Shown here in pieces: positions 37,415 to 42,591 of a DNA stretch of 64,000 nucleotides. Numbering within the stretch: the first letter of the stretch is position 1; each line of letters starts with the position of its first letter. Both the position numbers and the translations under genes were made by a program. The DNA is from Thermoanaerobacter sp. A7A (lineage in GTDB: Bacteria; Bacillota; Thermoanaerobacteria; Thermoanaerobacterales; Thermoanaerobacteraceae): contig NZ_AVAF01000093.1 in NCBI RefSeq assembly GCF_000445185.1, positions 33,357 through 97,356 on the forward strand, read 5' to 3'. Below the pieces are notes generated by a model, which ran no database searches, was not told the DNA's origin, and worked only from the letters and a program-made list of their open reading frames with translations.

Positions 37415-37778
37415 TTTTACTAGCCTCCCTTGCTATATCATCAAGCACCTCCAAGTACTCTCCATTAGCTATGGATTTTCCGGCAGTGAGGTAATCCTTT
37501 TTAACCCTTTCTGCAACTTTCAACACAATATTTCCTGCTCCTTTTGGCAAAAGCCCTCTTTCCTCAATTCTGTTTACAATCTCCTTTGCCTCAATACTAG
37601 AAAAACCCATTCGTAAAAGCACAGAACGCTCAATGGATGGAGATGTGTGATAATATGCCAACTCTATCAAAGGATCTACAATTTTTTCTGCCAATTTCCA
37701 GAAATATGCGTCTAATTCTTCATCTGTCATGTGCTTTAAGTGTTTGCTTCTTGTTTCAAAATCATCTTCTCGTCTCAT
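37404..37778 (-). CDS. oraS: D-ornithine 4,5-aminomutase small subunit
   Basis: MRREDDFE.R, FW.L...IVDP, TSPSIERSVLLRMGFSS. Confidence 0.95.
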   Translation of the reverse strand: MRREDDFETRSKHLKHMTDEELDAYFWKLAEKIVDPLIELAYYHTSPSIERSVLLRMGFSSIEAKEIVNRIEERGLLPKGAGNIVLKVAERVKKDYLTAGKSIANGEYLEVLDDIAREASKNEA

Positions 37779-39187
37779 ACTAACCCTCCATTCTGTAATT
37801 CTGAAATTACTTCTTTCACAAATTCTTCACTGGACTTAGTATCTTCTGCTAAAAACTTGATGTCCTCCTCTTTAGGCATTATTCCAAAATGTTGGACACA
37901 GTTTTTAATATAGGATTTTTTCAAATTTGAAAGATTGACTTCTCTTGCCTTTATCATAGAAGGATGTTCAGGCAAAATTATATTTTGTCCTGGTATCTCA
38001 TCATCAGGATTTCCTACTAGAATTTTTATGCCGTTTTGCATAGCAAAAGTAAGCTGAGCCGTTGGATTTTTACCTGCCCCTGTATATTCTGTCTCCTGCA
38101 CCACTATTATCTGGTCATTTTCCATTTGCTGTGCCAAACTGAAAGCTGCCGCTAAAGAGGTATTTCCCGCTGGTCCTCTTTCTAAACCTTCTAATTGAGC
38201 TAAAAGCTCTGTCATGTAAAAGACTTCCCCTTGCTTGACAAGGTAATACCCATCCATGTACCTTAAAGGCCTTGCAGCATTTCGAGGCACATCTGCTCTA
38301 TCCGGCCAAGTCGCAAAAGGAATTCCAAATCCTGTATGTCCCGTCGTAAAAGACTTTCTATTAAAATCTTTATCTGAGGCCATGTGAAGTCCTGTCAAAT
38401 CAACACTCACGCCGTATATTTTTGTGTTTACTGCTCCCGCTTTCATAAGTCCTCTTGCAGTACCCGTCAAATTGCCTCCACCAGCATGGGTGGCTACAAC
38501 AACATCAGGAAACTTACCAGTCCTCTCTTTTACTTGCTGAGCTATTTCATATCCCAATGTTTCAATACCAGCAACTCCAAAAGGAGTGTACAAAGAAGCA
38601 TTAAAATATCCCGTCTCTTCTAATAACATCAAGTTTACATAAAATAATTCCGGTCCAACAGTTAGTTGTATGACTTCCGCTCCAAATGTTTCACACTTTC
38701 TTCCTTTTTCCAATATTTCTGGCTGCCCTATACCTCTACTATCATAAGCTTCTTGCACTACGATGCATTTTAAACCTTTCATGGCAGCTTGTGAAGCCAC
38801 TGCTGCTCCGTAATTACCACTAGTGGCAGCTATGACTCCCTTATATCCCTTTTGTTTTGCGTGATATATAGAAACACTAGCCCGCCTTTCTTTAAAGCTT
38901 CCTGAATGGTTACAAGCTTCATCTTTTATAAAGATTCTGGCAGCTTTTCCTGTTGGCGAAACTTTTCTCGCTAATTCTGTCAAGTTTTTTAACTCTATAA
39001 GAGGAGTATTTCCTACATTTGCTTCCCTTTGTATTTTAACAATTTCTTCTAAGGTGTAACCTGTTTCTTTCATCATTTTTTCATATTCAAAAGCAATTCC
39101 ACCTGATTCAAATTTTTCATAATCTATTCCCAAAGATCTTTTCATTATTTCGTTTTTCCTAGCCATTACATGCTTATACCTACTCAT
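37775..39187 (-). CDS. ortB: 2-amino-4-ketopentanoate thiolase beta subunit (PLP)
   Basis: SGSFK.RR, AATSGNYGAAVASQAA, HAGGGN.TG, ETEYTGAGK. Confidence 0.93.
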   Translation of the reverse strand: MSRYKHVMARKNEIMKRSLGIDYEKFESGGIAFEYEKMMKETGYTLEEIVKIQREANVGNTPLIELKNLTELARKVSPTGKAARIFIKDEACNHSGSFKERRASVSIYHAKQKGYKGVIAATSGNYGAAVASQAAMKGLKCIVVQEAYDSRGIGQPEILEKGRKCETFGAEVIQLTVGPELFYVNLMLLEETGYFNASLYTPFGVAGIETLGYEIAQQVKERTGKFPDVVVATHAGGGNLTGTARGLMKAGAVNTKIYGVSVDLTGLHMASDKDFNRKSFTTGHTGFGIPFATWPDRADVPRNAARPLRYMDGYYLVKQGEVFYMTELLAQLEGLERGPAGNTSLAAAFSLAQQMENDQIIVVQETEYTGAGKNPTAQLTFAMQNGIKILVGNPDDEIPGQNIILPEHPSMIKAREVNLSNLKKSYIKNCVQHFGIMPKEEDIKFLAEDTKSSEEFVKEVISELQNGGLV

Positions 39188-39486
39188 TCTTCTTCACCGC
39201 CATACAATATCTCTCTTGCTTTTATACCTGCTTTTATAAGCTCAGGAATTGGATTGCCAAAATCGTGAATATGCCGTGGATTGATTTCTACTAAAATTCC
39301 TTCCACTACTCTACCCGTCAAAGTCTTAATTTTGACTGTGTCGCCAATCTCTCCATCTTGTAAAAGTAAACCTTTAACCCACATCGTCAAAGGAGTCCCT
39401 TTGGTATCTTGAGGTGTATTTTCAGATCTTTCCGATGGTTCTAAAATAACCTGTTTAATTTTTACCCAATCGCCTTTTTGAGCCAT
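39184..39486 (-). CDS. ortA: 2-amino-4-ketopentanoate thiolase alpha subunit
   Basis: KGDWV, P.DT..PL.MWVKG, T.TGR...G, H.FG. Confidence 0.92.
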   Translation of the reverse strand: MAQKGDWVKIKQVILEPSERSENTPQDTKGTPLTMWVKGLLLQDGEIGDTVKIKTLTGRVVEGILVEINPRHIHDFGNPIPELIKAGIKAREILYGGEEE

Positions 39487-39487
39487 T

Positions 39488-40528
39488 TTATCTCCTCCTG
39501 ATCATATCTCTTGCATCGCCCATAATAGCTCTAGGTACAGGCAAATCCAGCATAGTAACAAGACCTGGCTGCGCATTTATGACATGAGGTATCATATTGA
39601 CACAAAGAGCAATAGTACCTAGACCTCCAGGTATCTCAGGCTTTATAGACAACTTTATATTTGGAGTTCCTTTAATCTCAATATAGTCTCCAGTCTCTAC
39701 TCCTTCTTTTTGAGGTAATATCTGTTGCGGATGTTCCAATTCTATTTTTACCTCTCCATCTACCTTTCCATACCCTATTTGGCGACATCCAGCAACGTAA
39801 CCCGGCTCAACTCTTGCATAAGGGGTCTCTCTATAAGTTTTAGAAACTATAGGCTCTCTTGTCTGCTCAATACCTGAAAGTTTCCACCCTAAAGCATCAC
39901 AAATCATCGAAATAGACTCAGGAAATCCTATATGCCCTGCAACAGTCCCGTTTTTTACGCCTTCTTCAAATTCCTCAGGAGTGAGGCCCACCCCTTGTTC
40001 TTCCATAACAGCTTTTCCAAAAGGAGATAAGTCATTAATTCTTGCTGCTTTAATGGAATCAACATCTACGCAAACTCCCGTCAGTGCAATGATTAAATAG
40101 TCTAATACAAATCCCGGATTTATTCCTGTACCTAAGACAGATACGCCATTTTCTCTTGCAAGTCTGTCAATTTCTTTGGCTAATTCTAGATGTTGTGCAG
40201 AAGGATACGCCATCTCCTCAGCAGTTGTAATGACATTGATGCCATTTTCTACCGCCAATTTAATGAGCGGGAAAACCTTTTCTACATAGGAGGATGTAAC
40301 AATAACCGCTATATCAGCACTTCCTTTTTTTATAATATCTTGAGGTTCAGAAGTGATGTAAACAGGTTTAGAATTTGTCCCTAAAATTTCATTCAAATCC
40401 TTTCCTCTTTTATTTGGATCTGTATCAATTGCTCCAACTATTTCCATTCCTTTTTTAAAAAGTATCATCTTAGCAATACCACTTCCCATTGCACCAAGTC
40501 CCCATACAACCACTTTTATGTTTTCCAT
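39488..40528 (-). CDS. ord: 2,4-diaminopentanoate dehydrogenase
   Basis: WGLGAMGSG, TTAEEM, LGTG.NPGF.LD, GHIGF.ES, PEIPGG; operon context. Confidence 0.93.
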   Translation of the reverse strand: MENIKVVVWGLGAMGSGIAKMILFKKGMEIVGAIDTDPNKRGKDLNEILGTNSKPVYITSEPQDIIKKGSADIAVIVTSSYVEKVFPLIKLAVENGINVITTAEEMAYPSAQHLELAKEIDRLARENGVSVLGTGINPGFVLDYLIIALTGVCVDVDSIKAARINDLSPFGKAVMEEQGVGLTPEEFEEGVKNGTVAGHIGFPESISMICDALGWKLSGIEQTREPIVSKTYRETPYARVEPGYVAGCRQIGYGKVDGEVKIELEHPQQILPQKEGVETGDYIEIKGTPNIKLSIKPEIPGGLGTIALCVNMIPHVINAQPGLVTMLDLPVPRAIMGDARDMIRRR

Positions 40529-40734: not shown

Positions 40735-40769
40735 AATTAAAAATCCTGCATAATGCAGGATTTTTAATT
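40735..40769. terminator. Perfect 16-bp hairpin at the thioredoxin stop
   Basis: aattaaaaatcctgca-taa-tgcaggatttttaatt. Confidence 0.85.
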
Positions 40770-41435
40770 GTTTAAATGCTTTTCTATAAACTTTACAAAG
40801 TCTGCTTTAGGTCTTGCTCCTATTATTTTATCTACCATCTTGCCATTTTTGAAAAGTCCTATTGTAGGTATGCTCATTATTCTAAATTGCATTGCCAGCT
40901 CATTTTCTTCGTCTACATTAACTTTTCCTACTTTAATCTTTCCTTTATACTCTTTTGCTAGTTCATCTATTATGGGAGCAACTAATCTACAAGGTGCACA
41001 CCATTCAGCCCAAAAGTCTATCAATACTGGTACATCAGAGTTTACAACTTCTTCTTCGAAATTATCGTATGTAATTTCTACCTCGTCAGATTCTTCTGAT
41101 TGTGTAGCACCACCATTGAGATGTTTTTCTATAAACTTTACAAAGTCTGCTTTAGGTCTTGCTCCTATTATCTTATCTACCATTTTACCATTTTTGAAAA
41201 GCCCAATTGTTGGTATACTCATTATTCTAAATTTCATCGCCAATTCATTTTCTTCATCAACATTAATTTTACCTACTTTGATTTTTCCTTCATATTCTTT
41301 CGCCAATTCGTCAATTATTGGAGCCACCATTCTACAAGGCATACACCACTCAGCCCAAAAGTCTATTAAGACTGGTACATCTGAATTTACAACTTCTTGT
41401 TCAAAATTTTCAAGTGTAATAACTAATTCTGCCAT
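40764..41435 (-). CDS. Tandem two-domain thioredoxin
   Basis: Two Trx folds at a 115-aa period with WCMPC and WCAPC sites and cis-Pro SIPT motifs. Confidence 0.93.
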   Translation of the reverse strand: MAELVITLENFEQEVVNSDVPVLIDFWAEWCMPCRMVAPIIDELAKEYEGKIKVGKINVDEENELAMKFRIMSIPTIGLFKNGKMVDKIIGARPKADFVKFIEKHLNGGATQSEESDEVEITYDNFEEEVVNSDVPVLIDFWAEWCAPCRLVAPIIDELAKEYKGKIKVGKVNVDEENELAMQFRIMSIPTIGLFKNGKMVDKIIGARPKADFVKFIEKHLNN

Positions 41436-41537
41436 AAAACCACTCCTATACTTTTATTTCAATTTTATTTTTATACAAAGCAATTGCTTTATACATTTAT
41501 TATAAAACAAATTGCTCACAAAACCTAACTTTTAAAA

Positions 41538-41804
41538 TCACTTCATAAATTTTATAAATGTCTCAACTAGTTCATCTATCATGTCATCTTGCTTTTCAGT
41601 ACACATTGCTCCCTTTACACAGCTAGTAGTATAGCTTTTAAGAAGAATTTTGCCAACGCTGTTTATTGCAGACCTAACAGCAGCCACTTGTACCAGTACA
41701 TCTACACAATAGGCGTCATTTTCAATCATTTTTTGTATGCCTTTTACTTGTCCTTCAATTTTTCTTAATCTTCTCAACAAATCCTCTTTGCTATCTTGGT
41801 ACAT
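41538..41804 (-). CDS. CsoR/RcnR-family repressor lacking the metal-binding His
   Basis: RRLRKIEGQVKGI, YC.DVL.Q..AV, KSYTTSC. Confidence 0.9.
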   Translation of the reverse strand: MYQDSKEDLLRRLRKIEGQVKGIQKMIENDAYCVDVLVQVAAVRSAINSVGKILLKSYTTSCVKGAMCTEKQDDMIDELVETFIKFMK

Positions 41805-41816
41805 ATTATACCTCCC

Positions 41817-41870
41817 AACCCCATTGGGGTATCCAATGAATAGTATAAAAGTTTTTCACAGATATGTCAA
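41817..41870 (-). promoter_or_regulatory. SigA promoter with a CsoR-type operator
   Basis: TTGACA-N17-TATACT; TACCCC-AAT-GGGGTT between +1 and the RBS. Confidence 0.78.
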
Positions 41871-41880
41871 TAGCTTTTTG

Positions 41881-42591
41881 TTATTTTTTTAATAAATCCT
41901 TTACTACCTCTGCCGCTAAAATTAAGCCTGCTACAGAGGGAACAAAAGAAATACTGCCGGGTACCGATTTTGAAGAAGTTACAGTTTCCTCGCTTTGATA
42001 GAAATTTTTTAAAGGCTCTTCTTTAGAGTATACCACTTTTAAAGATTTAATACCTCTTTTTTTAAGTTCTCTTCTAACTATTTTTGCCAGAGGGCATACA
42101 CTTGTCTTGTATATATCCGTTACTTCAAATTTTGTAGGGTCTAATTTATTTCCTGCCCCCATACTGCTTACTATAGGAATATTTAACGAAATGCATTTTT
42201 CTATCAAATCTATTTTAGAAGGTACTCTGTCAATTGCATCAATCACATAGTCATACTCTTTAGACAAAAGCCTATCGCTATTTTCGCTAGAGTAAAACTC
42301 TTTAAAAATAATAACCTGGGCTTGAGGATTTATTTCCAATATCCTATCTTTCATCACTTCTACCTTTGGCTTGCCTATTGTATGAGTAGTAGCATGTATC
42401 TGTCTATTTATATTTGTGACACACACGTTGTCCCCGTCTATCAAAACCAATTTACCAACTCCTGCTCTTACTAAAGCTTCAACAGCAAAAGAGCCTACTC
42501 CTCCTATTCCAAAAACAGCAACAGTACTGTTTTTAAGTTTTAAAAGCCCTTCTTTCCCTATTAAAAGCTCTGTTCGTGAAAAAATGTCCAC
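41881..42591 (-). CDS. tcdA: tRNA threonylcarbamoyladenosine dehydratase (ThiF family)
   Basis: GIGGVGS...E.L.R.G, TN.NRQ, DAID, SSMGAGNK.DP, P.A..VR. Confidence 0.9.
   Translation of the reverse strand: MDIFSRTELLIGKEGLLKLKNSTVAVFGIGGVGSFAVEALVRAGVGKLVLIDGDNVCVTNINRQIHATTHTIGKPKVEVMKDRILEINPQAQVIIFKEFYSSENSDRLLSKEYDYVIDAIDRVPSKIDLIEKCISLNIPIVSSMGAGNKLDPTKFEVTDIYKTSVCPLAKIVRRELKKRGIKSLKVVYSKEEPLKNFYQSEETVTSSKSVPGSISFVPSVAGLILAAEVVKDLLKK

Follow-up and report, generated by a model that had tools for sequence, protein, structure and literature searches.

A CsoR-family repressor with tyrosine at the copper-ligand histidine position precedes a double thioredoxin gene in Thermoanaerobacter and may be a dithiol switch

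The csoR-trx locus of Thermoanaerobacter sp. A7A

We analyzed a 64,000-nucleotide stretch of the Thermoanaerobacter sp. A7A genome (assembly GCF_000445185.1, contig NZ_AVAF01000093.1, positions 33,357 to 97,356), referred to below as the window, which contains a gene for a small repressor of the CsoR family, here called csoR, followed by a thioredoxin gene, trx. All features given with window coordinates lie on the minus strand. The repressor gene (41538..41804), taken from the list of open reading frames, encodes a protein of 88 residues. In a Pfam profile search this protein matched PF02583 (Trns_repr_metal) with an E value of 2e-29 and 102.2 bits against a curated cut-off of 22.8, placing it in the CsoR/RcnR superfamily. 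An AlphaFold2 (AF2) model of the protein (predicted local distance difference test score, pLDDT, 91.5) contains helices at residues 3-28, 33-68 and 72-87, and the top Foldseek matches of this model were the CsoR structures 4m1p, 4uig and 4adz, with template modeling (TM) scores of 0.87-0.91. The protomer, which was the unit modeled, thus has the three-helix fold of the disc-shaped CsoR/RcnR tetramer. NCBIfam matches to RicR, FrmR (50.8 bits, cut-off 133) and RcnR (42.9 bits, cut-off 138) were all below threshold.

To assign the residue positions X, Y and Z, we aligned the protein with HMMER to the Cu(I)-CsoR structures 4m1p, 4adz and 2hh7. Cys33 (codon 41706-41708) falls at position X and Cys62 (41619-41621) at position Z, opposite the two cysteines that serve as ligands in 4m1p and 2hh7. 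At position Y, where Cu(I)-CsoRs have the histidine that provides the third ligand for Cu(I) and triggers allostery, the protein has Tyr58 (codon TAT, 41631-41633); the motif here reads KSYTTSC, compared to ERHANHC in Geobacillus and HNHLETC in Mycobacterium tuberculosis. Two cysteines with no histidine at Y (C33, Y58, C62) is the fingerprint of CstR. The Ni/Co sensors RcnR (H-C-H-H) and InrS (H-C-H-C) carry an N-terminal histidine at position W and a histidine at Y; residues 1-31 of our protein contain no histidine. An extra cysteine, Cys68 (codon 41601-41603), lies six residues past Cys62, where helix 2 reaches its C terminus and, in the AF2 model, on a different face of that helix.

The trx gene (40764..41435) encodes a tandem double thioredoxin of 223 residues with the active sites WCMPC and WCAPC. 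Its two PF00085 domains (E 2.4e-67; E 3.4e-78 for the thioredoxin family TIGR01068) are fused head to tail and are 90% identical to each other. Such a double thioredoxin was present in 8 of the 10 Thermoanaerobacter genomes that we searched and a single WCMPC copy in the other 2; in all other genera examined, trx was single copy and nearly always had WCGPC. The genus-level change of glycine to methionine in the thioredoxin active site coincides with the change of His58 to tyrosine in the repressor. The genome's other clear thioredoxin has WCRPC and adjoins CcdA-like and ResA-like genes outside the window (G000 C93:113025-113348), and none of the three strongest thioredoxin-domain matches in the genome (WCMPC, WCAPC, WCRPC) is the canonical WCGPC.

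Upstream of csoR is a predicted sigma-A-type promoter (41842..41870) that matches the consensus at 11 of 12 positions, with TTGACA (41870-41865) and TATACT (41847-41842) separated by 17 nt; both hexamers are kept at the locus in all 10 Thermoanaerobacter genomes. Between the -10 hexamer and the Shine-Dalgarno sequence of the repressor gene (GGGAGG, 41811..41816, kept in orthologous loci), roughly at +3 to +19 of the promoter, lies a candidate CsoR-type operator, ATACCCCAATGGGGTT (41817..41832), an ATACCCC-N3-GGGGTT inverted repeat. Across the 10 genomes the arms of this repeat are constant and its N3 spacer varies (AAT, GAT, ACT, AGT), which, read from the alignment, is the pattern expected for a protein-binding dyad. 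Because an ACCCC-N3-GGGGT-type match in the window arose in 21 of 100 shuffles and is thus not rare by chance, the weight of this assignment rests on the position of the box and its conservation. In the 2.6-Mb genome, ACCCC-N3-GGGGT occurs twice, at the csoR operator and once in-frame within galK, with no further intergenic copy. We considered the galK copy as a second regulon member and took it as a chance match. The regulon that can be recognized is therefore limited to this operon. A promoter-like TTGGCA-17-TATACT inside csoR, whose -10 hexamer uses the Tyr58 codon, was likewise dismissed as chance, given that the congeners do not retain these hexamers at synonymous positions.

The csoR-trx spacer of 102 nt (41436..41537) contains no intrinsic terminator that we could find. 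Its main feature is an AU-rich palindrome, AAAGCAATTGCTTT, which together with an upstream partner arm, AGCAATTTGTTTT (41474-41516), forms a predicted hairpin of ∼15 bp (-19.4 kcal/mol, z -1.97) that is conserved within the genus and followed by an A-rich, not a U-rich, tail. The hairpin might have a role in the processing or stability of the mRNA, or the site might bind a second regulator; the latter role was tried for AAAGCAATTGCTTT and set aside, as the core of the palindrome recurs only twice elsewhere in the genome and the hairpin is modest and lacks a U-tail. Downstream of trx, a 16-bp stem followed by a T-run forms an intrinsic terminator (40735..40769). Promoter, operator, csoR, trx and terminator are thus predicted to form one transcription unit with no internal terminator.

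An earlier note on this DNA, made from its letters alone, had read a tyrosine at the histidine position, both conserved cysteines and an extra cysteine in the repressor, and the alignment and codons bear this out. It had also described an autoregulatory operator and a thioredoxin downstream in place of copZ/copA. The box indeed sits just past the repressor's own promoter with arms conserved in the genus, as expected if the repressor binds there, and the neighbors of csoR are indeed tcdA and trx.

Orthologues and residue constraint across the Clostridia

Every one of the 10 Thermoanaerobacter genomes that we searched, among them that of the window, encodes Tyr58, as do two sister genera (g2 and g3). 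In these 12 genomes of three genera the codon is TAT, once TAC, and every His-bearing orthologue has CAT. These data indicate that the His-to-Tyr change in the Thermoanaerobacter branch was one old transition, and the earlier note's alternative of a strain-specific CAT-to-TAT mutation is refuted by them. Position 32 also varies within the genus, with His32 in place of Tyr32 in three congeners. Orthologues in Thermoanaerobacterium (g4), which are ∼83% identical, have His58 within the same tcdA-csoR-trx operon, and sister-genus orthologues combine His5 with the histidine at Y. Tyrosine at position 58 also arose independently in other Clostridia lineages.

The operon is part of a conserved locus. 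The local gene order is hisS-aspS-6S-tcdA-csoR-trx, and an orthologue of csoR was present in 27 of 27 Thermoanaerobacterales genomes searched. In families f1 and f2 the next gene is trx, whereas in family f3 it is rseC. The f3 orthologue has the histidine, and in place of a thioredoxin its downstream neighbor encodes a membrane protein of the RseC/MucC family that contains a CxxCxxC motif. The order csoR-rseC-trx was found in one Thermoanaerobacterium genome (L020) and in one Clostridia metagenome-assembled genome (MAG; L108). In L020 the rseC gene is intact and encodes 141 residues (1775-2200), and three further Thermoanaerobacterium genomes (L017-L019) contain a decayed 3' remnant of rseC in a 200-nt csoR-trx spacer; judged from these sequences, the four genomes capture a snapshot of rseC loss inside the operon.

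Beyond the Thermoanaerobacterales, a hisS-aspS-(tcdA)-csoR-like-(rseC/trx) locus was evident in Paramaledivibacter, Acididesulfobacillus, Desulfosporosinus, Moorella, Heliobacterium, Tepidibacter, Alkalithermobacter and Tissierellales MAGs. Many of these distant trx- or rseC-linked loci have an ATACCC-N3-5-GGGTAT box between the -10 hexamer and the Shine-Dalgarno sequence. The recurrence of the same locus with related boxes indicates that the module is old and widespread, and Thermoanaerobacter carries an rseC-less, Tyr58 form of it.

These comparisons bear on how the earlier note had explained the locus. It had proposed a redox or sulfur-stress module on the ground that the histidine was lost, and had named retention of the histidine in orthologues as evidence against this idea. 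Thermoanaerobacterium, Desulfosporosinus, Moorella and others do keep the histidine. They do so, however, in the same aspS-(tcdA)-csoR-trx/rseC context and with the same kind of operator, so the idea itself stands and the step from histidine loss to a redox module does not. What is left of the proposal is a non-cop, thioredoxin-coupled CsoR module with its operator; histidine loss as its cause is not.

To compare residue constraint between contexts, we assembled 114 loci from the order-level loci, a further 80 from one genome-contig scan and several exact-protein look-ups, and classed them by their neighbors using tblastn with Trx, RseC, ThiF, AspS, CopA and CopZ queries. Cys33 and Cys62 were invariant across all 114 loci. 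In the 53 copA/copZ-linked loci, position 58 was His, position 32 Tyr and position 78 Glu in every case (53/53 each). In the 52 trx/rseC-linked loci, position 58 was His in 33 and Tyr in 19, position 32 was Y, C, S, H, F, Q or A, and position 78 was E, D, K or S. Three loci with aspS/thiF neighbors only had His once and Tyr twice at position 58, Y, C or D at position 32, and Glu at position 78 (3/3).

This difference in constraint is not matched by a difference in overall divergence. After de-replication at <80% identity, the 41 cop and 24 redox (trx/rseC-linked) representatives were equally divergent, with mean pairwise identities of 0.51 and 0.52, and had mean column entropies of 1.40 and 1.24, respectively. 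The cop-invariant columns R12, E17, G18, Q19, G22, M26 and Q39, which belong to the DNA-binding surface or core, were also invariant in the redox group, as were both cysteines. The cop-invariant columns that changed non-conservatively in the redox group were 32, 58 and 78. These correspond to Tyr35, His61 and Glu81 of M. tuberculosis CsoR, described as the Cu(I) ligand and the allosteric second shell to which it is energetically coupled (PMC8643695). On a maximum-likelihood (ML) tree, which was built from 88 columns and is poorly resolved, at least five independent His/Tyr changes were seen, all on the redox side. The lineage is 45-58% identical to cop-linked Firmicutes CsoRs.

Taken as a comparison of sequences, the data suggest that the His-to-Tyr change does not define the module but is one sign that copper-type constraint has been lifted across the whole clade. 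Indeed, relaxation of the histidine and its second-shell partners across the clade, with the cysteines invariant, is better evidence for redox sensing than loss of the histidine itself. The extra Cys68 is lineage specific and no general partner of Tyr58: we considered whether loss of the histidine is generally compensated by a third cysteine and rejected this idea, as most Tissierellales-type Tyr proteins have two cysteines only.

Several features around the operon and elsewhere in the genome complete the picture. The conserved upstream neighbor of csoR, which serves as a context marker for the lineage, is a ThiF-family, TcdA-like gene (41881..42591; PF00899, with TcdA as best NCBIfam match below the cut-off). 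Between it and aspS lies a gene for 6S RNA (ssrS, RF00013; 42609-42791; 115.6 bits, E 5e-24), and read-through from 6S/tcdA into the csoR operator is possible. Directly past the trx terminator are the ornithine-fermentation genes ord (2,4-diaminopentanoate dehydrogenase), ortA and ortB (37775-40528), and the larger arrangement hisS-aspS ... ord-ortA-ortB recurs in Paramaledivibacter (L037).

The genome's copA gene (G000 C115:2481-4871) is on another contig, with no adjoining CsoR gene and no CsoR-type box in front. The genome box scan, in which the copA and copZ regions were inspected, showed no operator near either gene, and matches to the looser boxes TACCC-N5-GGGTA and TACC-N7-GGTA, which were inspected at copA/copZ only, included none ahead of copA. 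A second CsoR-family gene (L002 1483-1749; G000 C114:1702-1932) encodes a full C-H-C set with Glu at the second-shell Tyr position and is followed by a cysteine desulfurase gene and thiI rather than by cop genes. The family f3 orthologue of this second gene (L030, L031) precedes a thioredoxin gene, with a separate TTGACA promoter and a C5-N7-G4 box ahead. The Thermoanaerobacterales thus contain another CsoR-thioredoxin pairing, independent of the csoR-trx operon.

A candidate dithiol switch and its rivals

We think it fairly probable that the repressor is a dithiol switch, in which Cys33 and Cys62' from the neighboring subunit respond to redox change or sulfane sulfur, derepress thioredoxin and are probably reset by that same thioredoxin. 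In this mechanism, the repressor would bind the single ATACCCC-N3-GGGGTT operator past its own promoter and so repress both itself and the double thioredoxin. Oxidation of Cys33-Cys62' across the dimer interface, to a disulfide or to a CstR-like per- or polysulfide bridge, would lower the affinity for DNA and derepress thioredoxin. The induced thioredoxin would then reduce its targets in the cell and probably the sensor as well, closing a negative feedback loop that would act as a simple homeostat. Tyr58, or His58 where it is present, would serve as a bulky hydrogen-bonding spacer between the thiols and not as a ligand. The lineage would be Clostridia wide and anchored at hisS-aspS-(6S RNA)-(tcdA), with thioredoxin and/or the RseC-like CxxCxxC membrane protein, rather than copA/copZ, as its outputs.

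Because the two cysteines are the only strictly constrained residues while the histidine and its allosteric partners drift, sensing is most likely to proceed through Cys33-Cys62'. Both outputs, thioredoxin and RseC, are redox proteins; RseC is part of the SoxR-reducing system (PMC11729352) and is needed for rnf-dependent autotrophy (PMC9124969). There is precedent for the chemistry in CstR, whose cysteine pair is a persulfide/oxidant switch in the CsoR fold with a "wedge" residue at the histidine position (PMC8643695; PMC11672702). As for the inducer, general thiol oxidation is mildly favored over sulfane sulfur, since the operon lacks sulfurtransferase and persulfide dioxygenase (PDO) genes. 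Extending the proposal, we tentatively suggest that the whole Clostridia-wide lineage, C-H-C members included, could consist of thiol/disulfide-stress sensors that control trx and/or rseC and are reset by thioredoxin.

Several observations weigh against a dithiol switch, and some of them speak for a soft-metal sensor instead, in which Cu(I) or another thiophilic metal would be bound by Cys33 and Cys62', with Cys68 (Cys60 or Cys32 elsewhere) replacing the histidine, and thioredoxin would repair damage to thiols and Fe-S clusters. The nearest solved relatives of the repressor are Cu(I)-CsoRs, which are closer to it than CstR is (4e-18 vs. 2e-11), and Tyr32 and Glu78, the equivalents of the copper second-shell residues Tyr35 and Glu81, are still present. 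A third cysteine always accompanies Tyr58 in the Thermoanaerobacter branch (Cys68 in g1 and g3, Cys60 in g2), and several other Tyr-type proteins have Cys32 beside Cys33. The genome has no cop-linked CsoR, although genes for copA and copZ are present. In Halonatronum saccharophilum (L058), copA-copZ form an uninterrupted run with a csoR of the canonical C-H-C type and an rseC-like gene, and the locus has a perfect GATACCCCAAAGGGGTATC box upstream; it may represent a transition between the cop and rseC types of wiring or may hint at a role of the RseC-like protein in copper stress. Many members of the lineage hold the full C-H-C set, and ∼30% of the His-type matches in the first search have an N-terminal histidine or cysteine that could be a fourth metal ligand, for example in the MNSYH start of the Thermoanaerobacterium protein. 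Orthologues of family f3 (L024-L026, L028) have Cys/His-rich N-terminal extensions of 10-20 residues (e.g., EHCHNTYSY, ECCDHSYSY, HCNCDNNTYSY), and these members may be genuine metal sensors with a fourth ligand added. The residue statistics have their own limit: context switches only once or twice on the tree, such that they amount to a contrast in rates between two clades and not to repeated correlated evolution, an independent-pairs test of context against residue state had no power with only these one or two independent switches, and the data do not reject a single cop clade (approximately unbiased test, p-AU 0.195). Against soft-metal sensing, however, most of the Tyr-type proteins in the Tissierellales group have only two cysteines, Cys68 is predicted to lie on a different face of helix 2 from Cys62, and the operator was not found at copA or copZ. 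Moreover, the allosteric residues are relaxed throughout the lineage, and in CstR the absence of the histidine weakens both Cu(I) affinity and allostery (PMC8643695). We regard soft-metal sensing as unlikely.

The dithiol switch includes as a narrower case a CstR-type sensor specific for persulfide or sulfane sulfur, with thioredoxin acting as persulfide reductase. Thermoanaerobacter species reduce thiosulfate and sulfur, a physiology that such a sensor would suit, and the x-C-x-C fingerprint without histidine resembles that of CstR. In addition, thioredoxin-like proteins of Staphylococcus aureus are described as reductants of protein persulfides (PMC6196236). Yet CstRs regulate sulfide and sulfite detoxification genes, and no gene for rhodanese, PDO, TauE or CoA-persulfide reductase (CoAPR) is found in the operon, which comprises csoR and trx only, or behind a second operator. 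The absence of sulfurtransferase and PDO genes, which are typical of CstR regulons, also counts against the broader proposal. Furthermore, the wedge residue is Tyr or His and not Asn, the repressor does not group with characterized CstRs by E value, and His-type orthologues have the same operon. Persulfide as the specific inducer seems improbable. Even less likely, in our view, is an FrmR-like sensor of electrophiles or aldehydes, or an inducer-less autorepressor that buffers thioredoxin expression. Within the CsoR family, FrmR indeed senses aldehydes by means of the cysteine at position X, the NCBIfam matches to RicR, FrmR and RcnR are just sub-threshold ones, and negative autoregulation can by itself stabilize expression. 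However, FrmR has the N-terminal amine of Pro2, required for its methylene bridge, together with Cys35, and the present protein starts with MYQDSK and has no Pro2; the Z-position cysteine, which neither an FrmR-type sensor nor an inducer-less repressor would need, is invariant across the lineage.

Relation to known regulators and significance

The closest known relatives by both sequence and fold are the Cu(I)-CsoRs of Geobacillus thermodenitrificans (4m1p), Streptomyces lividans (4adz), Bacillus subtilis and M. tuberculosis, which fall in cluster 1/23 of the sequence similarity network (SSN) of the family (PMC8643695); E values over this group range from 4e-18 (4m1p) to 1e-12, and TM scores from 0.89 to 0.91. 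Similar to these proteins, the repressor has the three-helix protomer, the X and Z cysteines, the second-shell Tyr and Glu, a G/C-tract inverted-repeat operator and predicted autoregulation. It differs in having Tyr at Y, thioredoxin as output, and no copA/copZ neighbor or copA operator. In the wider lineage, moreover, the His/Tyr/Glu triad is unconserved, compared to 53/53 in cop-linked proteins. With the CstRs (CsoR-like sulfurtransferase repressors) of S. aureus, Enterococcus faecalis and Streptococcus pneumoniae (7mq1; SSN clusters 3, 4 and 10) it shares the x-C-x-C pattern, a non-ligand residue at the histidine position and, in all likelihood, sensing chemistry on an intersubunit cysteine pair. 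Its similarity to them is lower (E 2e-11 for 7mq1), it has Tyr or His where the CstR wedge is Asn (cluster 10), and it belongs to a separate, hisS-aspS-anchored lineage with a thioredoxin (± RseC) regulon that lacks sulfurtransferase, PDO and TauE. A functional analogy is provided by RexT of Nostoc, an H2O2-sensing ArsR-SmtB repressor of the thioredoxin gene trxA2 (PMC8960804), in which a metal-sensor family was likewise turned into a cysteine redox switch with thioredoxin output; its fold and family are unrelated.

The inducers listed for the CsoR family in a 2024 review of bacterial metal sensing are Cu(I), Ni/Co, formaldehyde and persulfide (PMC11672702). In the SSN of 32,476 CsoR sequences, clusters 6-9 are uncharacterized, with guesses of Cu for 6-7, Ni/Co for 8 and Cd/Zn for 9, and neither text nor supplement mentions thioredoxin (PMC8643695). 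Based on its 45-58% identity to cop-linked CsoRs, the present lineage probably lies inside the Cu-annotated cluster 1. The literature searched contained no description of a CsoR tied to thioredoxin or RseC, or to Thermoanaerobacter or the Clostridia. Such a regulator is also absent from a survey of clostridial thioredoxin systems published in 2024, and we found no dedicated regulator of the thioredoxin system in these strict anaerobes in searchable papers. Thiol switching in the CsoR fold is already known from CstR; the new part is the thioredoxin/RseC regulon of a CsoR-type switch.

The inducer of a CsoR-family protein is usually predicted from a four-residue fingerprint, and here a large, conserved branch constrains only the cysteine pair. 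If the proposed mechanism holds for the whole lineage, it would add a fifth class of inducer to Cu, Ni/Co, formaldehyde and persulfide, and annotation by the W-X-Y-Z fingerprint would mislabel the lineage. C-H-C proteins would then not necessarily be copper sensors. The signal from these sequence comparisons is clean and open to direct tests, and the natural His/Tyr pairs at ∼83% identity would allow the role of position 58 to be dissected. Confirmation would provide a dedicated regulator of the thioredoxin system for Thermoanaerobacter, Thermoanaerobacterium, Moorella, Desulfosporosinus, Tissierellales and other strict anaerobes, several of which are biofuel or acetogen workhorses for which tolerance of oxygen and redox stress is relevant.

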